DNA of 64,000 bases from Escherichia coli 042 (GTDB taxonomy: Bacteria > Pseudomonadota > Gammaproteobacteria > Enterobacterales > Enterobacteriaceae): NCBI RefSeq assembly GCF_000027125.1, contig NC_017626.1; one strand, 5' to 3'. Under the pieces are notes generated by a model. The model was not told the origin of the DNA, did no database searches, and worked only from the letters and a program-made list of their open reading frames with translations. A program made the translations under genes and the position numbers. The stretch's first letter is position 1. Each line of letters begins with the position of its first letter. Below are positions 375-49,541 of the stretch, in pieces.

Positions 375-550
375 TTCATTTCCTCTCATCCCATTCGGGG
401 TGAGAGTCTCTCCCCCCGCCTTATGGCTCATGCATGCATCAAAAAAGATGTGAGCTTGATCAAAAACAAAAAATATTTCACTCGACAGGAGTATTTATAT
501 TGCGCCCGTTACGTGGGCTTCGACTGTAAATCAGAAAGGAGAAAACACCT

Positions 551-754
551 ATGACGACCTACGATCGTAACCGTAACGCAATCACCACTGGCAGCCGTGT
601 TATGGTTAGCGGCACCGGTCACACTGGCAAGATCCTGTCGATTGATACTGAAGGTCTGACCGCTGAGCAAATCCGCCGCGGAAAAACCGTAGTTGTTGAA
701 GGTTGTGAAGAGAAACTGGCACCTCTGGACCTGATTCGTCTCGGCATGAACTAA
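551..754 (+). CDS. ydfZ: small protein YdfZ (67 aa)
   Basis: ORF 551..754, [21 protein letters not shown]..., length and sequence as remembered for YdfZ; followed by hairpin plus T-run. Confidence 0.85.
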
Positions 755-762
755 GCGTGTGA

Positions 763-792
763 ATGCCGCCGATGGCGGCATTGCTTTTTTTA
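763..792. terminator. hairpin (gccgccgatggcggc) plus T-run between convergent ydfZ and ydfI
   Basis: GC-rich inverted repeat followed by TTGCTTTTTTT, immediately after the ydfZ stop and at the ydfI stop. Confidence 0.5.
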
Positions 793-2250: not shown

Positions 2251-2339
2251 AACAATTCCTTAAATTTAAATATGGCAAGCTGCATGTTTTGTTATATGAA
2301 TAAAAAATCCCCTCTCCGGTAAGAGAAGGGATGGAGGAT

Positions 2340-4408: not shown

Positions 4409-4642
4409 ATGAAATCAAAAGACACCCTAAAGTGGTTCCCTGCGCAGCTTCCTGAAGTAAGAATTATCCTAGGGGATGCTGTAGTGGAAGTAGCAAAACA
4501 GGGAAGACCTATTAATACCAGAACATTGCTTGATTACATTGAAGGAAACATAAAGAAAAAATCATGGCTGGATAACAAAGAATTATTACAAACAGCGATA
4601 TCAGTTCTTAAAGACAACCAAAATTTAAATGGTAAAATGTAA
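4409..4642 (+). CDS. ydfK: Qin prophage small protein YdfK (YnaE/YdfK family)
   Basis: ORF 4376..4642; start chosen at MKSKDTLKWFPAQLPEV to give the 77-aa YdfK length. Confidence 0.75.
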   Translation: MKSKDTLKWFPAQLPEVRIILGDAVVEVAKQGRPINTRTLLDYIEGNIKKKSWLDNKELLQTAISVLKDNQNLNGKM

Positions 4643-34679: not shown

Positions 34680-35432
34680 TTATCTCGTCACCTTCCTCAA
34701 TTGCGCTTCCGCGTATGCTTCTTCCTGCCAGCACTTTGTTACCAGTTTACCAATGACGTCCGCATACCCCTTATACCACTGATAATCGGTCAGGTCTGGT
34801 ACCAGCTTCTGGACATGACGTCGTGCCAGCGTGGTCGGTAAACGACTAAACCGGTTTCCATTACAACGCCCACAAATCTTATATACCGGTACGCCATGAA
34901 ACCGGGTTCTTTTTTCATCCAGAACAATCCCTTTACCCTTACACCCTCTGCACGCTGTGCTGGCTTCGCCCTTACCATGGCAATGCTGACATAGTTCCTT
35001 CACCCATTCTTCCTTGATTACAGATTCCCCGCGTCTGTAGTGTTTCACCACTTCGCGCAATACATTATAAAATCCCGTACCTGAACAATGCTCACAGCGA
35101 GCCTTACTTGCCGCAGACCTGGAGTAATCAGCAAAGGCAAAACTCACGAGGTAAGGAATAATCTGTAACCGGATTTCTTCACTCAATTTGTTCAATGTCG
35201 GGTTATCCAGTGCCATCGCGTAATTTAGCAGGCCTTCAATCGCAAACTGAGGGTCCTGAACACCAACTTTTGCCAGAAATAAGGCCAACCCAAGTGGTGC
35301 TTTCGACTGCACCATCCCCTGCGCTGCCATTACATCCGTAATTGTTAAACAACCGGTGCCTGTCGCTGGAGCGTCATCGCTCAATTTTGGAGATTTTGGG
35401 GAGTAATATTTTGGTAAGGCTTCAAGGTTCAT
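34680..35432 (-). CDS. quuQ: late-gene antiterminator Q
   Basis: ORF 34680..35462; start chosen at MNLEALPKYYSPK... (250 aa); Cys-rich zinc-binding region; synteny. Confidence 0.85.
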   Translation of the reverse strand: MNLEALPKYYSPKSPKLSDDAPATGTGCLTITDVMAAQGMVQSKAPLGLALFLAKVGVQDPQFAIEGLLNYAMALDNPTLNKLSEEIRLQIIPYLVSFAFADYSRSAASKARCEHCSGTGFYNVLREVVKHYRRGESVIKEEWVKELCQHCHGKGEASTACRGCKGKGIVLDEKRTRFHGVPVYKICGRCNGNRFSRLPTTLARRHVQKLVPDLTDYQWYKGYADVIGKLVTKCWQEEAYAEAQLRKVTR

Positions 35433-35445
35433 GCTCGTTCTCCAC

Positions 35446-36534
35446 TTACGCCAGTACGCCAATTGCCAGCGCGCGATCGATAAAACGAAATATCAGCTCC
35501 AGTTGGGAGCCATACTTATCTTCAAATGCCACTGTATCCGTATGCAGCTCGTTGTGATGCTTTCTGCACAAAGGCAACACAAAGAGATCATGTGCTTTTG
35601 TTCCCATTCCGCCCTGCCCGTGACCAATCAGATGATGCGGATCGTCGGCTGGCATACCGCAGCAAGCACACGGCTGTGTCTTAACCCAACGTGTGTATTT
35701 CTCCTTAACCCAGCGGCGACGTTTAGGCAGCTTCATGAAAGATTCCGGAGACTCTGGATCAACGGTGATGCTTACCACCGTCTTTTCCTGTGGTGATTTT
35801 TGTTGCTGGTGGGCGTAAGGCAACGGTGCAAGATTTTTTGTGCGTTGTTTCAATATGCTGGTGGCGGTCTGCTCTCCCGGTACGATGTCGCTTTCGCGGT
35901 ACACCGAGCAGATTTTTTCCGCTGGTAATCCCAGCGAACGACGCGATACAGCCTCAGGTAGTGCATCCACCACCTGATTGCAGACCGCCCACCAGGATAA
36001 TTCAGCCAAAGATAATTCCCGCTCCTGCGTACCGCTTATTGCGTGACGGATGACGTCAATCACCCATGCTGTCAGATTTTGTTGAGCAAGCAGCTCCAGT
36101 GATTCCGATGTCTGGTCACGCAGTTGGTTGTCGCAGTGCCAGCACAACACCATTGCGCCGGTACCATAACGGTGAATGACTGTTTCAGTGTGATGGTAAT
36201 CGCCATTAGGCCACTGGCAGGATGTAACATGACGTAATAGCCAGTCGGACAATGCGCCAACGCCGCCAGCAGCACGAATCACCCGTTCGTTACTAAAAAA
36301 CGGCAGCAATGTTTTGTCTTCCGCCAGCGGCTGGCGAACGGCAGGAACGACTCCGGATGGCAGATTACGCATGCTTTTTGGTTCCGGTTCCACCAGCACT
36401 CGAGGATTATGAAATATCTGTATGGATTCACGGCCCGGCTTAAGGACCACCAGCCCAAGCTCAGGCACCAGAACAGGTCTAAGTAATACCCGCACGTTAC
36501 CTCCAGATCCGTTGCTGGAAAGTGCGGGACGCAC
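35446..36534 (-). CDS. ydfU: DUF968-family prophage protein YdfU
   Basis: 362-aa ORF with C-terminal HNH-like Cys/His cluster (CACCGMPADDPHHLIGHG...CRKHHNELH); synteny. Confidence 0.75.
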   Translation of the reverse strand: MRPALSSNGSGGNVRVLLRPVLVPELGLVVLKPGRESIQIFHNPRVLVEPEPKSMRNLPSGVVPAVRQPLAEDKTLLPFFSNERVIRAAGGVGALSDWLLRHVTSCQWPNGDYHHTETVIHRYGTGAMVLCWHCDNQLRDQTSESLELLAQQNLTAWVIDVIRHAISGTQERELSLAELSWWAVCNQVVDALPEAVSRRSLGLPAEKICSVYRESDIVPGEQTATSILKQRTKNLAPLPYAHQQQKSPQEKTVVSITVDPESPESFMKLPKRRRWVKEKYTRWVKTQPCACCGMPADDPHHLIGHGQGGMGTKAHDLFVLPLCRKHHNELHTDTVAFEDKYGSQLELIFRFIDRALAIGVLA

Positions 36535-36775
36535 GTGGTGGGCGTTCGGAATAAGGCAGCCTGACAGAGATTATCCAGTGCCGATAGTCGAGACTGAGAG
36601 CTTTCTTAACCTCGAACCCGCGCCTGCGGTAAGAATGAATCAGCCATTCGGCCTGTTCTGCAGTGCATGGAGGGTGCTGGAACCATTCAGACTTGAATGC
36701 GTGAGAATACCGCCCGTGCGTGCAGGCAAGAACGGGCGAATTATCAGAATTGTAATATTTTGCGTTGCGTGCCAT
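36497..36775 (-). CDS. rem: small prophage protein Rem
   Basis: 92-aa ORF; position between ydfU and hokD as in Qin; start uncertain. Confidence 0.5.
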   Translation of the reverse strand: MARNAKYYNSDNSPVLACTHGRYSHAFKSEWFQHPPCTAEQAEWLIHSYRRRGFEVKKALSLDYRHWIISVRLPYSERPPRASRTFQQRIWR

Positions 36776-36841
36776 CGGTTTTCTCCGGTGGCACGGTGTT
36801 ACTCAGCGGGAGTTCAGCCCCGCGCAAGATTGTAGATGAGT

Positions 36842-37093
36842 TTATTCTCCTGAAAAAGCAGAAAAGCCAGCTTTTATTCCGATCTCTTTCAATGCCTGTA
36901 ATGAAGTGACAAACTCACCTTCGCGCAAGATAAATCCGTCCGTGACCCGAGCATCCACAAAATTAATTAACGCAGCCCCATTCTTTCGCAAACACATAAT
37001 GCGGTAATGACTAACAAGATTTCCATTTTCAACGCACACAGCATAGAGGCCATCTTCACAAAAAATTTTACGCAGTTCTTCGATGTTCATCAT
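36842..37093 (-). CDS. hypothetical 83-aa protein
   Basis: ORF MMNIEELRKIFCEDGLYAVCVENGNLVSHYRIMCLRKNGAALINFVDARVTDGFILREGEF...; between the relBEF terminator and rem. Confidence 0.4.
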   Translation of the reverse strand: MMNIEELRKIFCEDGLYAVCVENGNLVSHYRIMCLRKNGAALINFVDARVTDGFILREGEFVTSLQALKEIGIKAGFSAFSGE

Positions 37094-37214
37094 CAGAATC
37101 CTTCCGGATAATTAGCTCTCCCCTTTAAGGGACCATCCCTCTTATCCCTGCGCGCTACTTAAGTATTTTTGATTCTATTCCGGCACCGTCCAGAACTTCA
37201 AACGCGTTGAAAAT

Positions 37215-37245
37215 AAAAACAAAAACCCGCCGAAGCGGGTTAAGT
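37215..37245 (-). terminator. rho-independent terminator of the relB-relE-hokD operon
   Basis: Minus-strand hairpin aacccgcttcggcgggtt followed by TTTGTTTTTATTTTC. Confidence 0.6.
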
Positions 37246-37309
37246 GCGGGTGCGTTGAGGATGCCTGCCACATCAGAGGTGGCGAGGGATTTCTCCCCCG
37301 CCGGGTCTC

Positions 37310-37465
37310 TTACTCCTCAGGTTCGTAAGCTGTGAAGACAGCGACCTCCGTCTGGCCGGTTCGGATTCGTACCTCGCAGAGGTCTTTCCTCGTTACCAGT
37401 GCCGTCACTATGACGGTTAAACAGATGACGATCAGGGCGATTAACATCGCCTTTTGCTGCTTCAT
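37310..37465 (-). CDS. hokD: type I toxin HokD (RelF), 51 aa
   Basis: Manual translation MKQQKAMLIALIVICLTVIVTALVTRKDLCEVRIRTGQTEVAVFTAYEPEE; below ORF-track cutoff. Confidence 0.85.
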   Translation of the reverse strand: MKQQKAMLIALIVICLTVIVTALVTRKDLCEVRIRTGQTEVAVFTAYEPEE

Positions 37466-37536
37466 AGCCTGCTTCTCCTGTCAACGCAAAGCAGAAGTGT
37501 CACCTTCGGTGCGAAACAGAGATGTCATGCTTTGGT

Positions 37537-37824
37537 TCAGAGAATGCGTTTGACCGCCTCGCTATATACTTCCGAGCGTTCTCTTTTCCCAACAGAAATC
37601 ACGAAAACGACAACTTTCTCGTCTATAACCTGGTATACAAGGCGATAGCCTGAAGACCGGAGCTTAATCTTGTAACAATCAGGCATACCACGGAGCTTGT
37701 TTGCTTCAATCCGGGGTGACTCAAGTACTTCAACCAGCTTCTTTTTCAACTGTTCACGTACCGTCGAGCCCAGCTTTCGCCATTCCTTTAGTGCCCGCTC
37801 GTCAAAATCCAGAAAATACGCCAT
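37537..37824 (-). CDS. relE: type II toxin RelE (mRNA interferase)
   Basis: 95-aa ORF MAYFLDFDERALKEWRKLGSTVREQLKKKL... Confidence 0.9.
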   Translation of the reverse strand: MAYFLDFDERALKEWRKLGSTVREQLKKKLVEVLESPRIEANKLRGMPDCYKIKLRSSGYRLVYQVIDEKVVVFVISVGKRERSEVYSEAVKRIL

Positions 37825-38063
37825 CAGAGTTCATCCAGCGTCACACGTACTGGCTTAGGATTACGAAGCCGTTCTTTCACTATCTCCACAAGTTCAGCAT
37901 CTTCATCACTCAGGAGTGTCTGTTTGAACGGCAAGCGTTCATTGTCAGCGATATACTCGAGCATGAGACGAAGCGCTTCAGAAGGAGTTACACCCATTTT
38001 TTCAAGCGCGGCGTAAGAACGCGCTTTAAGTTCATCGTCAATACGCAGGTTAATGCTACCCAT
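37824..38063 (-). CDS. relB: type II antitoxin RelB
   Basis: 79-aa ORF MGSINLRIDDELKARSYAALEKMGVTPSEALRLML...; stop overlaps relE start. Confidence 0.9.
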   Translation of the reverse strand: MGSINLRIDDELKARSYAALEKMGVTPSEALRLMLEYIADNERLPFKQTLLSDEDAELVEIVKERLRNPKPVRVTLDEL

Positions 38064-38087
38064 GTCTTACACCTCTTGTAATTACAA

Positions 38088-38393
38088 ATGTCATTACAAG
38101 TATCGCACTACAACATGCTTAGGGCAAGTCACGAAGGAAGTCAGAAAGTAGTCGTAAGAACGGTGATCACTGTCCGCTTTGTGCCAGGAGCAGCCATTGC
38201 TAAGTCCATCCTGTATTGTGCAGGTCAGCTCGTTTTTAAAGAGTCCGGCCATCATCTTACTGGTACAGACACCATATACTTTGTGACGGTCAGGCTACAT
38301 ATGCACAACTCAACTTATTCATCTATTTTTTGCTTTAGCATGTCAGTGTTGCTTTCTCGTCGGCGGGTGAGCGGTGACCTGACCTGTCGATAA
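38088..38393 (+). CDS. ydfV: possible YdfV-like ORF (101 aa), weakly supported
   Basis: Length and position between relB and flxA match K-12 ydfV; composition not strongly protein-like. Confidence 0.3.
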   Translation: MSLQVSHYNMLRASHEGSQKVVVRTVITVRFVPGAAIAKSILYCAGQLVFKESGHHLTGTDTIYFVTVRLHMHNSTYSSIFCFSMSVLLSRRRVSGDLTCR

Positions 38394-38595
38394 AGGAACG
38401 TAACACGTTTTATGCAACACCCGCATGCGGCAGAAAATTATTGCCGAACGTTTACCCCTGTCAACAAGCTTTACTTTCTGAGGCGCGCCAGCCCGCGAGG
38501 AAAACAATCTGAACATCAAACAATTAATGACACAAGAAATACGATTAAAGATTTTTTTGTGCATGCCGATAGTGCTTTTTTAAAAGGAGAAATCT

Positions 38596-38928
38596 ATGTC
38601 TGTCACAATTCAGGGAAATACCTCAACCGTTATTTCAAACAACTCCGCCCCGGAAGGAACATCAGAAATAGCCAAAATCACAAGACAAATTCAGGTGCTG
38701 ACTGAAAAGCTTGGGAAAATCTCATCGTAAGAGGGGATGACGACACAGCAGAAAAAAGAAATGGCTGCATTGGTACAGAAGCAAATTGAAAGCCTCTGGG
38801 CTCAACTGGAGCAGTTGTTAAGGCAGCAGGCAGAGAAAAAGAATGAAGACGCGACAGTTCAGCCTGATAAAAAAGAAGAGAAAAAAGACGATACAAATAC
38901 CGCTGGCACCATTGATATTTACGTCTAA
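38596..38928 (+). pseudogene. flxA: FlxA-like protein interrupted by in-frame TAA at codon 45
   Basis: MSVTIQGNTSTVISNNSAPEGTSEIAKITRQIQVLTEKLGKISS, stop, EG, then ORF-track 38737..38928 MTTQQKKEMAALVQ... in the same frame. Confidence 0.7.
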
Positions 38929-38942
38929 GTGACAGCCGTATT

Positions 38943-38968
38943 GTGGCCCTCATCGGGCCACTTTTCGC
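38943..38968 (+). terminator. hairpin plus T-run after flxA
   Basis: tggccctcatcgggcca stem followed by CTTTTCG. Confidence 0.5.
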
Positions 38969-39299
38969 CATCAGCCTTTTCTTTAAAGACATATTATCTT
39001 TGTATCATTTCTGATAGTTAACATTACAAGATATAAGTAATGGACGCACTCCCAATTAGTCTATTTAAATCGCCACGAGTTTAACTGACAACCCATGATC
39101 AATTATGAATTGCAACTATTTCTGTAGTCACTTTTGTGGGGACAGTCCACAAAACTGCCAACTTCCGCTTCTTGCTCTTAGCGGACATTAGCATAGGCTA
39201 TTTACCATAACGCCTCATTACGCGCACCGCCCAGACTGACTCAGCGCGTTTCTGGCATATCCCCGGTAAAACAAGTAACAAACCACCCGAAAATGAACA

Positions 39300-40760
39300 C
39301 CAGAAACGCGACTTAAGAATCTACCCTATGAATGGATATGCACTCAACCGAATCGATCTTGGTTTCAATCTTTTTTATCGGGATCAGGCTTCTTTTTAGG
39401 TAACTTCGGGGGCTTAACTTGCTGATGACTTTGCGTTCGGCGCGTAAGCCAGGGATGGTCAGCTTTAGGTTTAACATAGTATTTTGAGCGTAAATCAATA
39501 CGGGCATTATCCACTCGTTCATGGACACTCTTTTCATCATCCAGTGGTATAGGCTCCGGGCCATCAACATACTTTTCCCAGCCCAGCGCTTTCCCGTCAT
39601 ACAGAACGTTAATTTCACCGTCAAAGTTCTCGCATACAGTAACAACCGAATGCCTAAGTCGATATCCCCGGCCCTCACTGCGTACCTGAAACGCACTGCT
39701 TTTGTACTGGAAAGTGAGATTTTTAGACAGAACGCGCTTCGCCTGTAGGCTGAAGATATAACCCAGTTCCTCTTCAGAATGGTGCACATCAAGATGAGCA
39801 TTATCAGTAGTACGAGGCGACGTAGCGAACCGGTTGTTATAGGCTTCAATAAAGGTCGGCAACCATGCATTTGCTGTTTCAATATCACTGATATTCTGAA
39901 GCCGCATTTCTTTGACCAGCCTGTCCTGTAGTGTCTGATTGGCGCGCTCTACCCGCCCTTTTGCCTGCGGGCTGTTGGCATGGATTGGCTCGATGCCCAG
40001 TGTCTTTATCGCACGAGTGAACTGGGTCAGCTCACCTTCCCGCTCTGGGTTATTTACCCTGAATATACTGTGTCTATCAGAGTAGAGAGCGAGCGGTACG
40101 CCATGATCATTAAGGTAACCCCGGAGGGTTTCCATGTAAGCCCGGGTTGTTTCAGCAGGCACAAAACGCAACGCCATCAACGCACTGGTGGCATCATCAA
40201 TGAAAACGATCAGTGTACATCTGGGGCCTCGATTTTCAAACCAGTCATGAGGTGAGCCATCAATCTGGATCAGTTCACCGTAAGATGGTCGTCGCATGCG
40301 GCGTTGATATATACGGGCAATTTTACGACGGCGTTCACGCCATAACCCCTCTTCTACCATCCACTTTCTGAGAGTTTCAACGGATAAAGATAAACCGTGT
40401 ATCTCGCGCAATTTTTCGCACGCAAACGTAGGTCCAAAATCAGCGTAACGGCCTTTGAGGAGTGAAATTACTGTTGCTCTGAATTCAGTAGAAAAGGAAT
40501 TATTAGGACGCTTTCCACGTCGGTGGGAAACCAGACCAGAAGGCCCTTCATTTCTATACCGTTGCACCAGACGTTTAACCTGCCGAATAGAAATGCCAAT
40601 GCGTGCCGCAGCTTGTTCCTGAATAATCTGAAGTCGGTGGAGTTCCTTATGACTCATCGTAACAGTCTCTTTGATCATGAAAAATCCCCCAGAGAATTGT
40701 CTGGGGACATTTTAGAATGGTTCAAAGGGGACATTACAGCTTGGTGTTAACAATAGCCTG
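39300..40760. mobile_element. insertion sequence (boundaries approximate) carrying a DDE transposase
   Basis: Single 437-aa transposase gene in a ~1.45 kb block that interrupts prophage gene order between flxA and the replication genes; terminal inverted repeats not resolved by eye. Confidence 0.5.
39365..40678 (-). CDS. DDE (rve-fold) transposase with N-terminal HTH, IS481/ISNCY-like
   Basis: 437-aa ORF MIKETVTMSHKELHRLQIIQEQAAARIGISIRQVKRLVQRYRNEG... with integrase-core-like region. Confidence 0.8.
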   Translation of the reverse strand: MIKETVTMSHKELHRLQIIQEQAAARIGISIRQVKRLVQRYRNEGPSGLVSHRRGKRPNNSFSTEFRATVISLLKGRYADFGPTFACEKLREIHGLSLSVETLRKWMVEEGLWRERRRKIARIYQRRMRRPSYGELIQIDGSPHDWFENRGPRCTLIVFIDDATSALMALRFVPAETTRAYMETLRGYLNDHGVPLALYSDRHSIFRVNNPEREGELTQFTRAIKTLGIEPIHANSPQAKGRVERANQTLQDRLVKEMRLQNISDIETANAWLPTFIEAYNNRFATSPRTTDNAHLDVHHSEEELGYIFSLQAKRVLSKNLTFQYKSSAFQVRSEGRGYRLRHSVVTVCENFDGEINVLYDGKALGWEKYVDGPEPIPLDDEKSVHERVDNARIDLRSKYYVKPKADHPWLTRRTQSHQQVKPPKLPKKKPDPDKKD

Positions 40761-41012
40761 CTTCTCCGTGCCTTTCGGCACGTAAGAGGCTAACCTACAT
40801 GTGTCTAGCATGAAATTGGCCTCAGATTAATGTTAAGCGTCTTGCAGGACGCGTAATGTTAACTGGGGCTTTTCTCTATCTGCCGTTGGTGTCCATGCCC
40901 GAGGCAGATAGCCTCAAGCACCCGCAGTCATTCTACTTAACTAAGATTTCCCCGCAAACCGTTTTTGTCCAGCACAGTAAATATCCAACTAAACCAATGG
41001 AGTTCGCTGTAT

Positions 41013-41231
41013 TTACCGCCAGTATTCAATGCACATGACCGCCATGAACACCCCTAAAAAAAGGGCATTTATATATCCAAATATTAATATCAAAACATCA
41101 ACTTTTTCCATATACCTTGCTGTGAAGATGATGGGCATACATGATGCGAACAACCAGAACGCAACAAACAAAAACTGCAATGCGTTTTTCATTATTCCTC
41201 CTACAATCAATGTGCAATTACATTTAAACAC
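41013..41231 (-). CDS. hypothetical small membrane protein (two predicted TM helices)
   Basis: 72-aa ORF ...MKNALQFLFVAFWLFASCMPIIFTARYMEKVDVLILIFGYINALFLGVFMAVMCIEYWR. Confidence 0.35.
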   Translation of the reverse strand: MFKCNCTLIVGGIMKNALQFLFVAFWLFASCMPIIFTARYMEKVDVLILIFGYINALFLGVFMAVMCIEYWR

Positions 41232-42344
41232 ACCTCAATTTGGCCGGACATATAAATATCTAAACCAGAAAAAATCACTTACATAGCGTTACAAACTCTT
41301 TAGTCTAAAGGTTCATCGTAAAACATTCCCCATACTTATCAGTCCGTTCCGCGCCAGGTAGCTCATTGCCTTATCTGGCAACCTGTAATCAGGTTTCCGC
41401 TTTTTCAGTTGGCTGGTCGTTTAACCGACATAGTTAATCCATTAATCTAGTTGCCGGATGTTGGTGGATTTTCGCGTTTTAGTTGTTCATAAAAGTGCAC
41501 AGCTTTAACCAGTTCTTCTGATGTAACTGGGACTGGTGAGGCAGTGAATAAGGCCTGAATTTGATAGTTCGGCCTGTCGTTACAATCCTCTTTTTTCGGT
41601 ACATATTTCCAGTCACCAGACCACTACTTCCCCTGAAAGTCCGTAACGCCTTTTTTCACGTAGCGATATCGCCATGCCACTGGTTTTGCTTGCCCCGCCG
41701 TTTCATGCCCTTCCTGATAATTAATCTCGCTCATTCATCGCCCCACTCATCACAATATGCTTCGACCGGAGTTTTTCCCGCTTCATAGTCATCACGCTAG
41801 GATTCGACATCAGCAGCACTTCCACCGCGTAACTCACCATAGTCCATTAATAGTTCATCCCGCTCTTCAAAACTGATGTTATATTTAGCTGAACAAAAAT
41901 CAGCCACTTTGTTCTTCCTCATCGTCTTTTATTTCGTGGTATGAGTAATTGCAGTAGTTAAAGAAAATTTCTTATGCTCCGTCATGAATTTCCTCAGGTG
42001 TTGCGTCATCGTCCACTTCGAATACATCCTCAAAATCTCCACCAGCTATTCCCGTTTCAATAATAATTTTGAACTTTCGCATTTCACTACCGCCCTTTCG
42101 GGCGGCCTCCTGATGTTCTGAGGGTGCAGAAATCCATCCGGTTAAGGATTAAATTTTATTTACAGAACTGAATTTAATTATTCAGATATACGTATCTGTA
42201 GCCTTACGAATCTACTCACTGGATGCCTCTTTCATAAAAATAATCCAGTGGGTTTTATCGTTTTTTCCCTGTTCGTTGACAGATAACAGGTTTTCTGTCT
42301 GTCAGTGCCAGAATCTGGCTTACCGGTATTTGCGTTTCATTCCA

Positions 42345-42701
42345 TTAAAAAATCAGAACGCCGTGCGGCCTCAACACCCGAAAGGCTTCTTTAAATCTCT
42401 GTCGCGAATCATCACGCCAGGCATCTTTATTCAGCCGTCCATATTTCTTTCCCATCCAGGCGTTATCACCAACACTCTCAAGATGCGGAGGGTCTAATAC
42501 AACCATCGAAAAAGATGCGTCTGCAAATGATAATGCACGAAAATCTGCGATAATGTCAGGGCTGATAATCAAGCGTCTCCCATTGCGTAATGTGTATCCT
42601 TCTTTTCTGATATCGCTGAATATCGCCCGTTCGTCAGACTTATCGAACCAGAACATGCGGCTGCCACAGCACATATCAAGAATGGTTGCCGGTGCACTCA
42701 C
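42345..42701 (-). pseudogene. SAM-dependent DNA methyltransferase-like ORF, apparently truncated (118 aa)
   Basis: Motif I-like DMCCGSRMFWFD and motif IV-like VVLDPPH; ends at TAA after ...HGVLIF, frame continues protein-like (WNETQIPVSQILALTDRKPVICQRTGKKR). Confidence 0.45.
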
Positions 42702-43120
42702 TGCGCCACGTCCTGAAAATTACCCTGATAGAAAGCCAGTATGCGCTGCATAACTTCGCTCTTCCGGCACTCGCGACAGATTATGTTTAGGCGACTGTCG
42801 TAGCGACGTATTTCTCCGTCAGGTGATGACCAGATAAGGTCCGGATCAACCACAGCAGGTTTCTTCACCTTTGCCCTCGAGAGTTTTTTGCGGGCGTTTT
42901 GCCAGTCCTTACGCGCCTGTTCAGAGGGGAATAACCCGTAGCCGGAGTTGTATACATCGCCACTGGCTACCAGCTCTCTGGCAAGAACGCTCATCAGATA
43001 TCTAGTCGCACCTGTTTTAGCTTCCAGTTGCCGTAACGTCTCACGGCCGCTCTGGCGCACGAGTTCCACCACCTGCCATTTAATTTTTTCCCGCTCTTCT
43101 TGTGTAAAAACTTTTGCCAC
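42698..43120 (-). CDS. hypothetical prophage early protein (140 aa)
   Basis: ORF in the replication module downstream of the initiator gene; start overlaps methyltransferase-like ORF. Confidence 0.5.
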   Translation of the reverse strand: MAKVFTQEEREKIKWQVVELVRQSGRETLRQLEAKTGATRYLMSVLARELVASGDVYNSGYGLFPSEQARKDWQNARKKLSRAKVKKPAVVDPDLIWSSPDGEIRRYDSRLNIICRECRKSEVMQRILAFYQGNFQDVAQ

Positions 43121-43160
43121 AAGTCCCCCTTAAAATTACCTCATGACCTGAAATCAACAC

Positions 43161-44180
43161 TTATCCTCTGAAACCAGGCGGAATTTCTGTATCCGGTTCA
43201 GAAATATGATTAACACAACGCTGTACAGGTGAACGTCCCAGGCGGATGACCAGTTCGTCCCATTTTTCGCGGAGCTTTGACGGGCTCATGATGTTTTTGA
43301 CCCAGAATGGATCTCGCTGAACCCGACCAAACATTTCGCAAATTTGTCTGTGGCTTCTGCCATCCAGCATCCGCATTGTGCGCACGTCATTGGCCCAGGC
43401 AGTCCAGTTAGGCTCTTTTGGTCGCATGATCTCGCCATCATCACTGGCTGCCTGTTCGTAGAGACCCACGATCCGCCCCCAGATCCACTGCGCACACGCC
43501 AAATCCTCCCTGCTACCCCACTGGCGTTTTTTCGCACTAAACACAACCGCGTCGGAGTTCCGGGTTAAAAAATCCTGTTCAGTCGTCTGCGGGTCCGGTT
43601 GCGAAGCTTCCGGACGAAAAGTGTTTTTATTCTCTGTAGTAGTCTCTGTTGTATTCTCTGTAAGATCATCAGGCCATTTTGACCCGATGACATTGGGTCG
43701 TTTTGAACCAATGGAGCGTTTCATTTTGACCTCTTCCATCGTGTCATTTTGACCTGATGGAGCGGCGCATTTTGAACCGATGGATTCGCTCAATTTGCCA
43801 CCATCTAAAAGCTCGCTCCCATAGTTGATCGTGTAGAAATTGGTCATATCGCGCTTTGATTTATTGAGCTTTTCACAACGCAAAAGCCCCAGCGTTTTCA
43901 GACTTGCAAACGCGCGCTTTAACGTTGACTCTGACCAGAATGGGAACTGTTCCAGCCATTGTTCCGTTGTGTTATAAATCCAGCGAACACCATCACATTC
44001 CATGCCGGAGTTGGTATCTCTCAACCAGTAGTGCAGTTGTTGCAAAACAATGGCTTCGTTTAAGCCAATTTTCATTGCCAGCTGCGTGTTTATAACCAGT
44101 GGGCGTTCAGCAAAAAGAAGGCTCATAATTCCATCCAGCTTTTTGTTGGTATTGCTGTCGATACGCAAGTTTGAAAGCAA
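43161..44180 (-). CDS. putative phage replication initiator (lambda O position) with internal iteron origin
   Basis: 339-aa ORF at the position of lambda O relative to the Cro-like gene; contains a block of direct repeats inside the coding sequence. Confidence 0.55.
   Translation of the reverse strand: MLSNLRIDSNTNKKLDGIMSLLFAERPLVINTQLAMKIGLNEAIVLQQLHYWLRDTNSGMECDGVRWIYNTTEQWLEQFPFWSESTLKRAFASLKTLGLLRCEKLNKSKRDMTNFYTINYGSELLDGGKLSESIGSKCAAPSGQNDTMEEVKMKRSIGSKRPNVIGSKWPDDLTENTTETTTENKNTFRPEASQPDPQTTEQDFLTRNSDAVVFSAKKRQWGSREDLACAQWIWGRIVGLYEQAASDDGEIMRPKEPNWTAWANDVRTMRMLDGRSHRQICEMFGRVQRDPFWVKNIMSPSKLREKWDELVIRLGRSPVQRCVNHISEPDTEIPPGFRG
43675..43790. repeat. putative replication origin: ~5 direct repeats (iterons) of cattttga(a/c)c...atgga, period ~23 bp
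   Basis: Repeats cattttgacccgatgacattgggtcg / ttttgaaccaatggagcg / cattttgacctcttccatcg / cattttgacctgatggagcgg / cattttgaaccgatggattcg inside the initiator gene. Confidence 0.5.
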
Positions 44181-44628
44181 TTGCTTTTTCTATAAGTTCG
44201 TCAGTTTCACGATCCACTACGGCAGGATCAGCAAAAAGCAGTCCGGACTCCACCACATCGCCATATTCTTTGTTTAACCCGGCGATCATGCACGTGATGC
44301 TTTTTCCGTCAGTAATTTCACGATACAACCTGAAATCATTAATCCGGATAGCCTCCATAATTGCAGGCACTAGCGCCGTGAACTTTTCACGCTTATCCCT
44401 GGTGTCGATAGCCTTCCAGCGTTCAAATATCTTCACTCGATTAACGCCAAGCGCTCGCTGATCAATCGCGCCACCTTCATATGTGACACGCTGAACATCG
44501 ATGTTCGGGCGCTCTTTCAAAGCCCAGAATGCTTCAGTGATTAATATCGTCGCCTGCTCCTGTGTCATTCCTGGTCGACATATCCAGGCATCCAGAGCCT
44601 CACGAGCCTGTTCAGGAGTGATTTTCAT
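44107..44628 (-). CDS. YdaT-like prophage regulatory protein (cII position)
   Basis: 173-aa ORF directly downstream of the Cro-like dicC; pattern ...IFERWKAIDTRDKREKFTALVPAIMEAI... resembles YdaT-family proteins. Confidence 0.45.
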   Translation of the reverse strand: MKITPEQAREALDAWICRPGMTQEQATILITEAFWALKERPNIDVQRVTYEGGAIDQRALGVNRVKIFERWKAIDTRDKREKFTALVPAIMEAIRINDFRLYREITDGKSITCMIAGLNKEYGDVVESGLLFADPAVVDRETDELIEKAIAFKLAYRQQYQQKAGWNYEPSFC

Positions 44629-44842
44629 TGTTCAACCGCCCCGCCCGCTTCGTCTTACGATATTCATCATAAACTTTGGGATCATACTGAAGCTCCCCGC
44701 CAGATGCCTCCTGTAGACGCATCGCGCGACCTTCGGGAACTAAATCCCCTTTCCAGCTATAAAGCGAAGCCAAACGAATACCTGCTGCTTGTGCAAGTTT
44801 TGTTTTTGAACCGAAATACAAAAGAGCGTCAGTTTTAAGCAT
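44612..44842 (-). CDS. dicC: Cro-like regulator DicC
   Basis: 76-aa ORF MLKTDALLYFGSKTKLAQAAGIRLASLYSWKGD... divergent from dicA. Confidence 0.85.
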   Translation of the reverse strand: MLKTDALLYFGSKTKLAQAAGIRLASLYSWKGDLVPEGRAMRLQEASGGELQYDPKVYDEYRKTKRAGRLNNENHS

Positions 44843-44925
44843 TTAAAACACCTTTATTGTTAGCCATAACTAACAAGATAGATGTTAACAAAAACATAGT
44901 CAATACGATTTAGCATTAGCTAACT
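44843..44925. promoter_or_regulatory. dicA-dicC divergent promoter/operator region
   Basis: Intergenic region with palindromic operator-like elements (tgttagccataactaaca; ttagcattagctaa). Confidence 0.55.
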
Positions 44926-45333
44926 ATGGAAACAAAAAATTTAACTATCGGCGAACGCATCAGGTATCGTCGGAAAAACCTCAAACACACCCAAAGGTCT
45001 CTTGCTAAAGCCCTGAAAATCTCCCATGTGTCTGTATCACAATGGGAACGGGGTGATAGTGAACCTACAGGGAAGAACCTTTTTGCCCTCAGCAAAGTAT
45101 TGCAATGCTCACCAACATGGATTCTATTTGGCGATGAAGACAAGCAACCAACACCACCTGTTGAGAAGCCAGTTGCCTTATCCCCCAAAGAACTAGAGCT
45201 CCTTGAGCTGTTTAATGCACTGCCAGAATCAGAACAGGATACCCAGCTCGCCGAAATGCGAGCTCGAGTAAAAAACTTCAATAAACTCTTTGAAGAATTA
45301 CTAAAAGCCCGTCAGCGGACAAATAAAAGATAA
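44926..45333 (+). CDS. dicA: XRE-family repressor DicA
   Basis: 135-aa ORF METKNLTIGERIRYRRKNLKHTQRSLAKALKISHVSVSQWERG... (HTH). Confidence 0.9.
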   Translation: METKNLTIGERIRYRRKNLKHTQRSLAKALKISHVSVSQWERGDSEPTGKNLFALSKVLQCSPTWILFGDEDKQPTPPVEKPVALSPKELELLELFNALPESEQDTQLAEMRARVKNFNKLFEELLKARQRTNKR

Positions 45334-45499
45334 CATCATCAATGAGTTATCTTTTACCACATCAATTATGTTAGCTATAGCATACAAAATCACTTGACCG
45401 ATATGTTAGTCATGGCTAATCTTGTTTGCATCAACACACCGCACGGTGTTCTCAGCAAACAGTTCCGCTACCCCAGCGTTAAGGGGAAATGAGGTCAGC

Positions 45500-45655
45500 A
45501 TGGATACTATCGATCTTGGCAACAACGAATCTCTGGTGTACGGCGTGTTTCCAAACCAGGACGGCACGTTCACCGCAATGACGTATACCAAAAGCAAAAC
45601 GTTTAAAACCGAAAATGGTGCCCGTCGCTGGCTGGAAAGAAACTCAGGTGAGTGA
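45500..45655 (+). CDS. ydfA: small protein YdfA (51 aa)
   Basis: Internal start MDTIDLGNNESLVYGVFPNQDG... within ORF 45422..45655. Confidence 0.8.
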   Translation: MDTIDLGNNESLVYGVFPNQDGTFTAMTYTKSKTFKTENGARRWLERNSGE

Positions 45656-45656
45656 T

Positions 45657-45785
45657 ATGGATTTCGACACAATCATGGAAAAGGCTTACGAAGAATACTT
45701 CGAAGGCCTTGCCGAAGGCGAAGAAGCTCTCAGCTTCAGTGAGTTTAAACAGGCGCTTTCCAGTTCGGCAAAATCTAACGGCTGA
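45657..45785 (+). CDS. ydfB: small protein YdfB (42 aa)
   Basis: Manual translation MDFDTIMEKAYEEYFEGLAEGEEALSFSEFKQALSSSAKSNG; below ORF-track cutoff. Confidence 0.75.
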   Translation: MDFDTIMEKAYEEYFEGLAEGEEALSFSEFKQALSSSAKSNG

Positions 45786-45814
45786 TAAGCGAAACAGCAC
45801 CGCGAGGAATCAGT

Positions 45815-46033
45815 ATGCAGAAACGAGAACCCGTCATCATCGCGCCAGACTATACCGATGATGAACTTTATGAGTGGATGCGCCAGAAAATTAATGCAGC
45901 GCAGGATCTGAAATGGGCTAATGAAGCCAGGGCTAAGCAGGCTGAAAATCTGTCCGCTCTGGAGCAGGATATCACCAATCTGGAAAAAGCAGCGGCATTA
46001 AGCATTGCCAGAATGATTACATACCCGCGTTAG
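45815..46033 (+). CDS. ydfC: small protein YdfC (72 aa)
   Basis: ORF MQKREPVIIAPDYTDDELYEWMRQKINAAQDLKW... Confidence 0.8.
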   Translation: MQKREPVIIAPDYTDDELYEWMRQKINAAQDLKWANEARAKQAENLSALEQDITNLEKAAALSIARMITYPR

Positions 46034-46373
46034 TAGCTAATCAACAAAGCTAAGGTTAGTAATTAAGGAGTTCTCCACGGGTGAGGTGGAGTGCGTGCGC
46101 CGGACACGGGTGCGCATCCGGAACTGACAGTTTACTGAAAGGATATTTCCCTGAAAAGTCAGACCATAACGCGAAAGCGCACGGCGAGGTAGCTGGTTCA
46201 TAGATAGCCTGTCGTTAAATTTTCGTCGACCGTGCGCTTCCGGTTGTGGCAACCCGCGAAATGGCGCGGCGGTAAGTATGGCGGGGTTATTCCTTCCCCG
46301 TTGAGGACACCGGGTTGTCAGGTTGACCATACGCTTAAGTGACAACCCCGCTGCAACGCCCTCTGTTATCAAT

Positions 46374-46432
46374 TTTCTGGTGACGTTTGGCGGTATCAGT
46401 TTTACTCCGTGACTGCTCTGCCGCCCTTTTTA
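46374..46432 (+). ncRNA. dicF: DicF small regulatory RNA (cell-division inhibitor, ftsZ antisense)
   Basis: tttctggtgacgtttggcggtatcagttttactccgtgactgctctgccgccc followed by TTTTT; matches DicF as I remember it; lies between ydfC and dicB. Confidence 0.8.
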
Positions 46433-46600
46433 AAGTGAATTTTGTGATGTGGTGAATGCGGCTGAGCGCACGCGGAACAGTTAAAACCAAAAACAGTGTT
46501 ATGGGTGGATTCTCTGTATCCGGCGTTAATTGTTAACTGGTTAACGTCACCTGGAGGCACCAGGCACTGCATCACAAAATTCATTGTTGAGGACGCGATA

Positions 46601-46789
46601 ATGAAAACGTTATTACCAAACGTTAATACGTCTGAAGGTTGTTTTGAAATTGGTGTCACTATCAGTAACCCAGTATTTACTGAAGATGCCATTAACAAGA
46701 GAAAACAAGAACGGGAGCTATTAAATAAAATATGCATTGTTTCAATGCTGGCTCGTTTACGTCTGATGCCAAAAGGATGTGCACAATGA
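46601..46789 (+). CDS. dicB: cell-division inhibitor DicB (62 aa)
   Basis: Internal start MKTLLPNVNTSEGCFEIGVTISNPVF... within ORF 46496..46789. Confidence 0.85.
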   Translation: MKTLLPNVNTSEGCFEIGVTISNPVFTEDAINKRKQERELLNKICIVSMLARLRLMPKGCAQ

Positions 46790-46977
46790 ATTCAGCATTT
46801 GTGCTTGTTCTGACAGTTTTTCTTGTTTCCGGAGAGCCAGTTGATATTGCAGTCAGTGTTCACAGGACAATGCAGGAGTGTATGACTGCAGCAACCGAAC
46901 AGAAAATTCCCGGTAACTGTTACCCGGTCGATAAAGTTATTCACCAGGATAATATCGAAATCCCGGCAGGTCTTTAA
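46786..46977 (+). CDS. ydfD: small lysis-associated protein YdfD (63 aa)
   Basis: Start MNSAFVLVLTVFLVSGEPV... overlapping dicB stop; hydrophobic N-terminus. Confidence 0.8.
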   Translation: MNSAFVLVLTVFLVSGEPVDIAVSVHRTMQECMTAATEQKIPGNCYPVDKVIHQDNIEIPAGL

Positions 46978-47069
46978 AACAGTTCCGTAATAAATATCCG
47001 GTTTCATTCTTATATGCCAGCAATGGCAGGGATTTGTTCATCCTTAAATCTGTCATGAGGTTAAAACAA

Positions 47070-49541
47070 ATGAGTAAAGTCTTTATTTGCGCCGCTATTC
47101 CTGACGAACTGGCAACAAGGGAAGAAGGCGCTGTGGCTGTAGCCACAGCCATTGAAGCTGGCGACGAACGCCGTGCTCGAGCAAAATTTCACTGGCAATT
47201 CCTGGAACATTATCCGGCTGCTCAGGACTGCGCTTATAAATTTATTGTCTGCGAGGATAAACCTGGCATACCCCGCCCTGCCCTCGATTCATGGGATGCT
47301 GAATATATGCAGGAAAACCGCTGGGATGAGGAGTCTGCTTCTTTTGTCCCGGTTGAGACTGAATCCGATCCGATGAACGTCACTTTTGACAAGCTGGCCC
47401 CTGAAGTACAGAACGCTGTCATGGTTAAGTTCGACACATGTGAAAACATCACCGTTGATATGGTTATTAGCGCACAGGAATTGTTGCAGGAAGACATGGC
47501 AACATTCGACGGACATATCGTTGAAGCGTTGATGAAAATGCCAGAAGTTAACGCCATGTATCCGGAGCTTAAGTTGCACGCCATTGGGTGGGTTAAGCAT
47601 AAATGTATTCCTGGTGCTAAATGGCCCGAAATTCAGGCAGAGATGCGCATCTGGAAAAAACGTCGCGAAGGTGAACGCAAGGAAACCGGAAAATACACGT
47701 CTGTTGTTGATCTCGCCCGCGCCAGAGCCAATCAACAGTACACTGAAAATTCAACAGGAAAAATCAGCCCGGTCATTGCTGCCATTCATCGCGAATACAA
47801 GCAGACATGGAAAACACTGGATGACGAACTGGCCTACGCTCTCTGGCCTAGTGATGTGGATGCCGGAAACATTGACGGCAGCATCCATCGCTGGGCAAAA
47901 AAAGAAGTTATCGACAACGACCGCGAAGACTGGAAGCGTATCTCGGCATCAATGCGCAAACAGCCTGATGCCCTTCGCTACGACCGCCAAACTATTTTTG
48001 GCCTTGTCCGTGAGCGTCCGATCGACATTCACAAAGATCCCGTAGCACTGAACAAATATATCTGCGAATACCTGACGACAAAGGGCGTGTTTGAGAATGA
48101 AGAAACAGACCTGGGCACTGTTGATGTTCTCCAGTCATCAGAAACACAAACTGATGCAGTGGAAACTGAGGTATCTGATATCCCAAAAAATGAAACCGCG
48201 CCGGAAGCTGAACCATCTGTAGAGCGTGAGGGGCCGTTCTATTTCCTCTTCGCAGATAAGGACGGAGAAAAATACGGTCGCGCAAACAAACTCTCTGGTC
48301 TGGATAAGGCACTGGCTGCTGGCGCCACTGAAATCACAAAAGAAGAATATTTTGCCCGAAAAAATGGCACATACACGGGCTTACCGCAAAATGTAGATAC
48401 CGCTGAAGATTCAGAACAACCAGAGCCGATAAAAGTTACCGCTGACGAAGTAAACAAAATTATGCAGGCAGCCAATATCAGCCAGCCTGACGCCGATAAG
48501 TTGCTTGCTGCATCACGTGGTGAATTTGTTGAAGGGATTAGTGACCCGAATGATCCGAAATGGGTTAAGGGGCTCCAGACCCGCGATTCTGTGAACCAGA
48601 ACCAGCATGAATCGGAACGGAACTACCAAAAAGCGGAACAAAACAGTCCAAATGCGTTACAAAACGAGCCAGAAACGAAACAGCCTGAACCAGTAGCGCA
48701 ACAGGAAGTGGAAAAAGTCTGCACCGCCTGCGGTCAGACCGGCGGCGGCAACTGCCCTGATTGTGGCGCGGTGATGGGCGACGCAACATACCAAGAAACA
48801 TTCGATGAAGAGTATCAGGTTGAAGTTCAGGAAGATGATCCGGAGGAAATGGAAGGCGCTGAACATCCACACAAGGAGAACACTGGCGGCAATCAGCATC
48901 ACAATAGCGATAATGAAACTGGCGAGACGGCAGATCACCCAATTAAGGTGAACGGTCATCACGAAATCACATCCACCAGCAGGACGTGTGACCATCTAAT
49001 GATCGACCTTGAAACCATGGGAAAAAATCCTGATGCCCCGATCATCTCAATAGGTGCAATATTTTTCGATCCGCAAACCGGAGATATGGGACCGGAATTT
49101 AGTAAGACTATCGATCTGGAAACTGCTGGCGGAGTCATTGATCGGGACACCATTAAATGGTGGCTTAAGCAATTACGCGAAGCGCAATCTGCCATTATGA
49201 CCGATGAAATCCCGTTAGATGATGCACTGTTACAATTGCGAGAATTTATCGACGAAAACTCCGGTGAATTTTTTGTTCAGGTTTGGGGAAATGGAGCCAA
49301 CTTCGACAACACGATTTTGCGCCGTTCATACGAACGGCAGGGGATCCCCTGCCCGTGGCGTTACTACAACGATCGCGATGTACGCACAATCGTTGAGCTG
49401 GGGAAAGCCATAGACTTCGATGCCAGAACGGCTATTCCATTCGAAGGTGAGCGCCATAATGCACTTGATGACGCCCGTTACCAGGCAAAATACGTTTCAG
49501 TTATCTGGCAAAAACTGATCCCGAGTCAGGCTGATTCTTAA
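47070..49541 (+). CDS. ydfE: YdfE-family prophage protein, full length, with central zinc ribbon and C-terminal DEDDh (DnaQ-like) 3'-5' exonuclease domain
   Basis: ORF 47034..49541; start chosen at MSKVFICAAIPDELATRE...; CxxC...CxxC (CTACGQTGGGNCPDCG); exonuclease motifs DLETMG, GANFDNTIL, HNALDDARYQA. Confidence 0.8.
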   Translation: MSKVFICAAIPDELATREEGAVAVATAIEAGDERRARAKFHWQFLEHYPAAQDCAYKFIVCEDKPGIPRPALDSWDAEYMQENRWDEESASFVPVETESDPMNVTFDKLAPEVQNAVMVKFDTCENITVDMVISAQELLQEDMATFDGHIVEALMKMPEVNAMYPELKLHAIGWVKHKCIPGAKWPEIQAEMRIWKKRREGERKETGKYTSVVDLARARANQQYTENSTGKISPVIAAIHREYKQTWKTLDDELAYALWPSDVDAGNIDGSIHRWAKKEVIDNDREDWKRISASMRKQPDALRYDRQTIFGLVRERPIDIHKDPVALNKYICEYLTTKGVFENEETDLGTVDVLQSSETQTDAVETEVSDIPKNETAPEAEPSVEREGPFYFLFADKDGEKYGRANKLSGLDKALAAGATEITKEEYFARKNGTYTGLPQNVDTAEDSEQPEPIKVTADEVNKIMQAANISQPDADKLLAASRGEFVEGISDPNDPKWVKGLQTRDSVNQNQHESERNYQKAEQNSPNALQNEPETKQPEPVAQQEVEKVCTACGQTGGGNCPDCGAVMGDATYQETFDEEYQVEVQEDDPEEMEGAEHPHKENTGGNQHHNSDNETGETADHPIKVNGHHEITSTSRTCDHLMIDLETMGKNPDAPIISIGAIFFDPQTGDMGPEFSKTIDLETAGGVIDRDTIKWWLKQLREAQSAIMTDEIPLDDALLQLREFIDENSGEFFVQVWGNGANFDNTILRRSYERQGIPCPWRYYNDRDVRTIVELGKAIDFDARTAIPFEGERHNALDDARYQAKYVSVIWQKLIPSQADS

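Follow-up and report, generated by a model that had tools for sequence, protein, structure and literature searches.

The insertion sequence (IS) ISEsa1 of Cronobacter sakazakii, placed by ISfinder in the ISNCY/IS1202 group, is catalogued as a 1609-bp element with inverted repeats (IRs) identical at 15 of 22 positions, a 439-amino-acid (aa) transposase as its only gene product, no target-site duplication and no target (PMC10132070). Elements of the IS1202 family have a single 400–500-aa transposase with a helix-turn-helix (HTH) region at the N terminus and a DDE/RNase-H core, imperfect IRs of ~22–28 bp with TGT...ACA outer bases, subterminal repeats, and target-site duplications of 5–6, 15–17 or 27–28 bp. 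No targeting was found outside the 5-bp IS1202 subgroup (bioRxiv 2022.12.17.520857). ISAjo2 and ISAba32 (“dif/xrs hunters”), elements of ~1.5 kb with 5–6-bp duplications, are inserted beside XerC/XerD sites; for the ISTde1 subgroup (15–17-bp duplications) no target preference is reported and one plasmid-borne member is known. Here we describe a 3,274-bp unit at positions 37479..40752 of a 64,000-nucleotide stretch of Escherichia coli 042 DNA (contig NC_017626.1; the whole stretch is referred to below as the window). With high probability, this unit is one cargo-carrying IS1202-family transposon of the ISEsa1 lineage that inserted at the start of a hok gene, bringing with it the type II toxin–antitoxin (TA) module relBE.

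The transposase gene and the hairpin preceding it are located as follows:

39365..40678, minus strand, transposase gene (tnp), 437 aa; its final 49 codons (39365..39514) correspond to ydfW of K-12
40686..40707, minus strand, terminator-like stem-loop with a T-run, directly 5′ of the transposase ATG and overlapping the ribosome-binding site; a putative terminator detected by consensus scan

A preliminary description of this DNA had reported a 437-aa “rve-type” transposase gene with exactly these coordinates and no strand; the open reading frame (ORF) is on the minus strand. The encoded protein matches the NCBIfam model NF033594 (“ISNCY family transposase”) with 455 bits (cut-off 250) over nearly the whole model; the IS481, IS21 and IS3 models gave weaker matches, each under its own cut-off. 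In Pfam, HTH_32, HTH_29 and HTH_28 were found above threshold in the N-terminal part and rve_3 at 24.2 bits, slightly under the cut-off of 26.5, and the term “rve-type” holds in the broad DDE sense. A search of PDB sequences gave a single, marginal match (E=0.0098), to a retroviral-type integrase core. The DDE residues lie in IQIDGS, YSDRHS and GRVERANQTLQ, with Q at position E+7 and a DD pair (FIDDAT) between the first two motifs; all of these are signatures of the IS1202 family (PMC10132070; bioRxiv 2022.12.17.520857). A phage integrase-like affiliation, which according to the preliminary description would have spoken against an IS, does not apply: the core is of the DDE type, and no Pfam or NCBIfam match to a phage tyrosine or serine integrase domain (Phage_integrase, Resolvase) was obtained with the transposase. 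RefSeq copies of 446 aa, encoded by genes 27 bp longer, are labelled by the Prokaryotic Genome Annotation Pipeline (PGAP) as “IS1202-like element ISEsa1 family transposase”. Relative to one of these (WP_004196353.1), the window protein lacks nine aa (ESINRHITQ; 27 bp, in frame) of the first HTH. The single 437-aa product, with its N-terminal HTH and DDE/RNase-H core, is thus assigned by sequence to the IS1202-family (ISNCY, ISEsa1-like) DDE transposases.

The borders of the element are marked by the following features:

40725..40752, minus strand, left inverted repeat (IRL), TGTTAACACCAAGCTGTAATGTCCCCTT; more than 15 independent loci start their homology exactly there
37479..37506, minus strand, right inverted repeat (IRR), TGTCAACGCAAAGCAGAAGTGTCACCTT when read inward from its tip; no inverted match to IRL in the region is better (22 of 28 positions)
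40753..40767, target-site duplication, left copy; perfect 15-bp repeat of the right copy
37464..37478, target-site duplication, right copy; ATAGCCTGCTTCTCC on the plus strand, GGAGAAGCAGGCTAT in gene orientation
40702..40721, minus strand, inner subterminal repeat of the left end, identical to inner IRL at 15 of 20 positions, 24 bp apart; presumed second transposase-binding site
37509..37527, minus strand, inner subterminal repeat of the right end, identical at ~13 of 19 positions to inner IRR shifted by one base; presumed second transposase-binding site

The mobile unit defined by the TGT...ACA tips contains, in gene orientation, IRL, the terminator-like hairpin, tnp, flxA and ydfV, relB, relE and IRR. 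Homology with 22 genome loci and several plasmids always begins at window position 40752, with TGTTAACACCAAGCTGTAATGTCCCC in gene orientation. IRL has one match in the window (0 expected by chance), and the IRR tip (...TTTGCGTTGACA) is kept in other lineages. The IRs (TGTTAACACC... and ...GCGTTGACA), with 22 of 28 identical positions, have the length and the outer bases typical of the IS1202 family. The 15-mer GGAGAAGCAGGCTAT is present directly outside both tips, at 40767..40753 and 37478..37464, and occurs exactly twice in the window (0 expected by chance); the length of this perfect duplication falls within the classes known for the family. Subterminal repeats, a further family feature, are found at both ends. 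The right one, which is the weaker, directly follows the relE stop codon, 23 bp from its IRR copy, in our alignment by eye.

The preliminary description had interpreted the locus as an IS at 39300..40760, interrupting a run of prophage genes between flxA and a nin-like region. A mobile-element transposase is indeed inserted in a Qin-type prophage, and this interval includes the left end (IRL tip at 40752). It misses the right end at 37479, and instead of a single-gene IS of ~1.5 kb we find a 3,274-bp unit with relBE, ydfV and flxA; flxA is therefore located inside the element and is not its neighbor. The insertion hit the hokD/sok locus, as described below, instead of an intergenic position within the prophage early region. 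A search for a target-site duplication, recommended there, identified the perfect 15-bp copies at 37464-37478 and 40753-40767. Two similar motifs mentioned in connection with the ends are present in direct orientation (39135-39145 and 40701-40711), as had been noted. These GGGGACA motifs were rejected as element ends on account of that orientation; the first is placed in the cargo and the second within the left inner subterminal repeat.

The DNA on the two sides of the element comprises two halves of one locus:

37310..37465, minus strand, hokD ORF, the toxin half of the split locus, now downstream of relBE (Pfam HOK_GEF, 82.9 bits)
40753..40923, minus strand, sok region and leader of hok, now orphaned; regulatory half of the hok/sok locus

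The HokD protein of the window is identical to that of K-12 (WP_000813254.1). The Rfam model RF01794 (sok) matches at full length at 40752..40923 (104 bits, gathering score 59, E=1.3e-23); the model extends over the hok leader as far as the AUG of hok, and its terminal AUG falls on the insertion junction. The hokW/sokW leader of phage 933W is 92% identical, with an alignment that begins exactly at 40753, and within the compared stretch (38500-41500) the 933W hokW DNA matches only 40753-40969. The target duplication consists of the hok Shine-Dalgarno sequence and the “AT” of ATG, after which follows G-AAG-CAG..., the HokD ORF. A structured leader whose sok region ends at the hok start, and behind it a Hok/Gef ORF, are thus found across both halves. 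The insertion separates the “AT” from the “G” of the hok start codon and so splits the hok/sok locus; as a result of the duplication, hokD has its own copy of the Shine-Dalgarno sequence and ATG. A weak resemblance to a hok remnant (“TEIVAI”) directly left of 39160 was also considered, and was dropped, as the true hok ORF (hokD) is located behind IRR. The terminator region 3′ of hokD (37220..37301, minus strand) gave a weak match to Rfam isrK (25 bits, gathering score 50, E=0.023), which is probably just a terminator hairpin.

In silico removal of 37479..40767 yields a 712-bp product that matches many E. coli chromosomes in one piece (100% coverage, 99.2% identity); in the complete E. coli genomes searched, at least 80% of this empty-site query was covered in 1,070 genomes. 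Strain 2 HS-C (locus L074; loci of the comparison set are given as L numbers) has the order ydfU, rem, hokD, sok leader, phage genes. Positions 1797-3830 of this locus align to window 35446-37479 and positions 3815-4460 to 40753-41399, so that both flanks are collinear; the duplicated 15-mer is single, and hokD is contiguous with the sok leader. A single 15-mer together with collinear flanks is what is classically expected of the empty counterpart of a transposon that duplicated 15 bp of its target on insertion.

These data bear on the origin of relBE. Were the locus a mosaic of at least two events, relBE (promoter plus TA module) would have integrated alone upstream of hokD and the transposase separately. 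Acquisition of relBE from plasmids, with truncation of an ancestral mok/hokD ORF, is stated in PMC6379469, citing Ramisetty and Santhosh 2016, and horizontally moving TA modules have been described as promoter plus ORFs (PMC5120126). Inter-element recombination does occur, as the two arms of the element diverge unequally between the window and locus L094 (left arm 90% and right arm 99% identical). Against such a mosaic, all 3,274 bp are bracketed by one 15-bp duplication and exact removal of this segment restores a natural allele, two insertions would leave two duplications or none, and the IRL...IRR unit recurs at other hok loci with other duplications. We therefore regard separate integration of relBE as highly improbable.

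Five further hok-type insertions were identified on plasmids and metagenome contigs, and each is flanked by a perfect duplication of its own, 15-16 bp long. Including non-hok sites, seven other insertions show a duplication length of 15 or 16 bp:

pEnt261 (L002), duplication GGAGAAGAAGGCCAT, in front of an R1-like hok
Salmonella IncI plasmid (L007), duplication TGGAGGGGCTATGAT, before a pnd-like hok
pEC-IMPQ (L150; E. cloacae IncHI2, 225000-248000), 15 bp, at a different hok homologue; element of 6,093 bp with ISEsa2 inside
L094, perfect 16-bp duplication, hok site
L093, 15 bp, GGAGAAGTATGCTAT, hok start; element of another lineage
L146, 15 of 15 positions, AAAATCCGGCGCAAA, non-hok site
L026, 13 of 15 positions, non-hok site

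In some copies (L008, L063) the flanks are mismatched between the ends, which indicates recombination between elements. On nickel-cargo plasmids (L003, L006, L072, L119 and L143), the hok leader beside IRL is preserved as far as ...GGCAAGGAG, after which come 12 bp (TTGTATGGGTCC) with no match to any hok sequence; a copy of the duplication was not detected either. The junction carries a small rearrangement. For the distant lineages L010-L015, a search of 2.5-kb flanks with the reverse complement of their own IRL and for an approximate duplication identified no right end; longer loci of distant lineages did yield ends, and the cargo of L010-L015 probably exceeds the flanks searched.

The insertion sites were compared using genome, viral and metagenome loci retrieved with a degenerate IRL pattern, a convenience sample biased to Enterobacteriaceae, which provided 54 distinct left-end flanks. 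Hok leaders were identified in 32 of these, all in the same orientation. In the hok flanks the GGCAA arm of a hairpin 5′ of the hok Shine-Dalgarno sequence directly precedes the duplication, which ends with AT or ATG. The same insertion point is used by lineages with ~70-80% DNA identity to the window copy (L013, L087, L091, L093 and L096). Among the 22 non-hok flanks, GCAA ends exactly 15 nt (seven flanks) or 16 nt (three flanks) before the junction and is found at no offset of 10-14 or 18-21 nt; by chance, GCAA would be expected at the junction distance in ~0.2 of 22 flanks. In two loci, L111 (2736/2752) and L116 (11714/11730), IRR is followed by exactly 15 bp and then by the IRL of another element, i.e. 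the same hok site contains a tandem. Such IRR-15 bp-IRL tandems would be expected if insertion spares a recognized determinant on the IRL side, as has been reported for the dif-hunting subgroup of the IS1202 family. Hok sites and some non-hok sites also have a DNA hairpin ~15-20 bp upstream, which was considered as the target feature and rejected as inconsistent, GCAA-N15/16 being the reproducible feature. A preference of the clade for (G)GCAA-N15/16 sites in one orientation, with hok start regions as the main natural instance, is strongly supported by these junctions.

The association with hok could also result from selection or hitch-hiking, the structure being as described above: toxin-silencing insertions would survive and spread. 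The left arm of the element is carried by 852 PLSDB plasmid records, mainly from Klebsiella and Enterobacter but also from Salmonella and others, and 620 of them are conjugative; hok loci are located on highly mobile replicons, and several recombinant junctions, such as those of L008 and L063, demonstrate that flanks can be inherited or exchanged without transposition. Selection would not by itself account for an insertion point whose position relative to the GGCAA arm is fixed to within 1 bp across hokD, R1-like hok, pnd-like hok and the IncHI2 homologue, nor for the same point and orientation across transposase lineages that are only ~70-80% identical at the DNA level. Moreover, non-hok sites have GCAA at exactly N15/16, and tandem arrays reuse the same site. 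This explanation of the hok association appears unlikely, and site preference of the transposon is the reading followed below.

The interior of the element is modular, with two conserved arms and an exchangeable middle segment:

39160..40752, minus strand, conserved left arm with IRL, the transposase gene and ~205 bp downstream of it
38192..39159, variable cargo segment, with flxA and most of the ydfV ORF in the window copy
37479..38191, minus strand, conserved right arm with the relB upstream region, relB, relE and IRR
38596..38928, plus strand, flxA (Pfam FlxA, 53.8 bits), with a premature stop in the window copy
38088..38393, ydfV ORF, with no family assigned
37824..38063, minus strand, relB, antitoxin gene (Pfam RelB, 112 bits; annotated as relB in identical loci)
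37537..37824, minus strand, relE, type II toxin gene (Pfam ParE_toxin, 51 bits; annotated as relE, WP_000323025.1, in identical loci)

Left-arm homology ends at 39157-39170 in L010, L021, L072, L094 and 612 plasmid records, and the long form of this arm is 1620 bp. The right arm is 99% identical in elements with other cargo (L094, L072), with breakpoints recurring at 38184-38198. Cargo exchange always breaks at 39157-39160 and at 38184-38198. In L094 and in L150 (the IncHI2 plasmid pEC-IMPQ) the middle segment is 2.3 kb long and encodes a CDF (cation-efflux) transporter and cytochrome b561. In L072 (K. pneumoniae pINF118_1, 200000-232000), whose IRR is shortened by 10 bp, it comprises ~10.5 kb of nickel/chromate resistance DNA, including ncrABCY and chrB. 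It is replaced by other DNA in L026 and L146. The latter element (161..2340 of metagenome contig Ga0160444_101287; 2,180 bp) has IRL and IRR and no transposase gene, its cargo being limited to an SDR gene, an alpha/beta-hydrolase-like ORF and relB. Either this element is non-autonomous and mobilized in trans, or it arose by a later deletion. The element of L093 (metagenome contig Ga0160455_100919; 8,109 bp) belongs to a distant lineage, with ~70% DNA identity over tnp, and genes for a TacA antitoxin and a GNAT toxin adjoin its IRR in place of relBE. It may thus be a recurrent feature that the right end holds a type II TA module. A 16-nt inverted repeat (GTAGTCACTTTTGTGG / CCACAAAACTGCCAAC) at 39124..39162 spans the boundary between cargo and left arm. 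In the window, flxA is a pseudogene: relative to K-12, a G-to-T change at 38728 converts codon 45 from GAA to TAA.

The homology-block boundary that recurs at 39157-39160 might be taken for the end of a simple single-gene IS of ~1.5-1.6 kb (~39157..40752, i.e. ISEsa1 as catalogued), with relBE, ydfV and flxA as ordinary prophage or independent genes. The block 39160..40752 does act as a conserved unit in many contexts, and conservation among L010, L021 and the window stops at this point; the ISfinder entry, with its 1609 bp and 439-aa transposase (PMC10132070), agrees with such a size. However, no convincing IR is present at 39157-39160 (~9 of 22 positions matching IRL in an alignment by eye) and the 15-nt flanks are not repeated, so this boundary was rejected as an element end. 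The ISfinder entry itself has IRs of 15/22 and no detectable duplication. Wherever the DNA could be traced past 39157-39160, different cargo follows, and then the relBE right arm and IRR, whereas a simple IS has no passenger genes between its IRs; here RelB, RelE and FlxA are encoded inside. The 3.27-kb unit, by contrast, has an exact empty site and a duplication. A single-gene IS ending at this boundary is accordingly very unlikely.

With regard to ISEsa1 as catalogued, the 439-aa length equals that of the 446-aa form counted from its second Met (MSHKEL...), and the left arm measures 1620 bp (long form), or 1610 bp if measured to the point where ISEsa2 is inserted in pEC-IMPQ. The left arm 39160..40752 probably corresponds to ISfinder ISEsa1, as judged from these similarities. 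The 3,274-bp unit of the window differs in its size, its right end (another and much better matching one, 22/28, with ...GTTGACA), its 15-bp duplication, its cargo and its preferred target. The element of pEC-IMPQ has ISEsa2 inserted at position 1599-1610, which would explain a length of 1609 bp. Our conjecture is that the catalogued ISEsa1 may have been delimited by an ISEsa2-type junction and may represent a mis-delimited left arm.

A remnant of the same insertion is present in E. coli K-12, from which one segment has been lost:

39550..44348, segment deleted in K-12, 4,799 bp, comprising the 5′ 1,129 bp of tnp, IRL, the sok leader and ~3.6 kb of prophage DNA

The K-12 locus (L073) corresponds to window 35365..39549, with one mismatch in 4,185 bp (the flxA substitution at 38728 is the sole difference), joined to 44349..47836. 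K-12 keeps IRR, the right copy of the duplication, relBE, ydfV and flxA, and has hokD without sok. The 4,799-bp deletion accounts for both the transposase stump annotated as ydfW and the absence of sok next to hokD. The remark in the preliminary description that K-12 carries other remnants at this position is borne out to the extent that only the right part of the element is kept there. Among 5,426 complete E. coli genomes, 1,165 contain transposase sequence, which approaches full length in 789 of them; the median copy number per genome is one. Neither the genome scan nor the protein search turned up a copy in Cronobacter.

The element shares features with several described systems. Like ISAjo2/ISAba32, which belong to the IS1202 family, it is tipped by TGT/ACA and has a further subterminal repeat at either end, it inserts in one orientation, IRL being beside the recognized site at the distance of the duplication length, and same-site tandems occur; here, the duplications are 15–16 bp long and the sites are (G)GCAA at hok starts. 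With the ISTde1 subgroup it has in common the two features compared, namely the length class of the duplication and the initial TGT at both ends; this subgroup differs in the absence of a reported target preference and in its one plasmid-borne member, against 852 plasmid records with the left arm described above. In tIS elements (tISKpn21, tISRel10) an IS-type transposase and ends are likewise combined with passenger genes inside the IRs, but theirs is one hypothetical passenger, whereas the present element has a TA-bearing right arm and exchangeable cargo of 1-10 kb that includes metal-resistance operons. Tn7 resembles it in its TGT/ACA tips, multiple subterminal repeats and site-selective insertion, and the DDE core is related to TnsB (PMC10132070). 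Unlike Tn7, it has one transposase gene and no TnsA, TnsC, TnsD, TnsE or TniQ, the other ORFs being relB, relE, flxA and ydfV, and its duplication is 15 bp instead of 5 bp. Disruption of chromosomal hok/sok loci by mobile elements is also a shared theme. In 1999, Pedersen and Gerdes reportedly described hokA, hokC and hokE of K-12 as inactivated by IS150 or IS186, ISs near the loci for which no site-specific targeting was claimed. Those elements are from unrelated IS families; in the present case the element hits the start codon in a fixed orientation, and such insertions are repeated in different hok homologues. A full-text literature search found no publication tying hok to IS1202, ISNCY or ISEsa1.

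The most likely course of events at the window locus is as follows. The transposase would bind two repeats per end and join the TGT/ACA tips to staggered cuts, as is known for the family. The stagger of 15-16 bp would be measured from the (G)GCAA recognized by the transposition complex, as the duplications and the motif suggest. The target was the hok/sok locus of a Qin-type lambdoid prophage, cut with a 15-bp stagger: the duplicated 15 bp begin directly after the conserved GGCA(A/C) of the hairpin 5′ of the hok Shine-Dalgarno sequence and end at the “AT” of ATG. The hok promoter, leader, mok start and sok thereby came to lie on the IRL side, reading towards IRL, and the hairpin at 40686-40707, predicted by the consensus scan, may block read-through from the hok promoter. 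On the other side hokD, with its own copy of the Shine-Dalgarno sequence and ATG, now lies behind relBE, where it would be under relBE control, giving the relB-relE-hokD (“relBEF”) arrangement. A relBEF co-transcript has been reported (Gotfredsen and Gerdes 1998, as cited in PMC5120126), in agreement with such control. Loss of 39550..44348 in K-12 followed later.

Several points weigh against the interpretation of the locus as a hok-targeting transposon of the ISEsa1 lineage. Activity, mechanism (copy-out/paste-in or cut-and-paste) and target recognition are all deduced from sequence. The right-end inner repeat is weak (~13/19). The equivalence of the left arm with ISEsa1 is drawn from the PGAP label and the lengths. 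Twenty-two of the 54 junctions are outside hok, about half of these without GCAA, which makes this a preference and not an absolute rule. The loss of nine aa from the first HTH means that the window copy may never move again, and the median of one copy per E. coli genome gives no evident sign of recent activity in this species. The HTH deletion, together with the single-copy distribution, suggests that the window copy is an inactive fossil.

Taken more broadly, it seems probable that the ISEsa1-lineage clade consists of “hok hunters”, which select (G)GCAA-N15/16 in one orientation and carry a type II TA module (relBE or TacA/GNAT) at the right end together with swappable cargo, that one such insertion made the relB-relE-hokD, ydfW, flxA and ydfV arrangement of K-12, and that the ISEsa1 entry is a mis-delimited left arm. 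If true, the anomaly of the ISEsa1 subgroup, for which neither a duplication nor a target is listed, would be resolved, and a correction to the ISfinder entry is suggested. Duplications of 15-16 bp, and a target specific in both sequence and orientation, would be assigned to an IS1202 subgroup for which the two papers on the family found neither. The insertion described here also explains several oddities of K-12, namely hokD without sok or mok, the identity of ydfW (“intK”) and the placement of flxA and ydfV. The relBE module of K-12 is the founding member of its TA family and “relBEF” a standard operon; its spread has been noted with no vehicle named (PMC6379469, PMC5120126), and the transposon gives it a concrete vehicle and mechanism. 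The element also represents a widespread cargo platform on mostly conjugative plasmids, in some copies with genes for nickel/chromate resistance or cation efflux. With one addiction module on board and another split by its insertion, the transposon presents a directly testable conflict between selfish elements.

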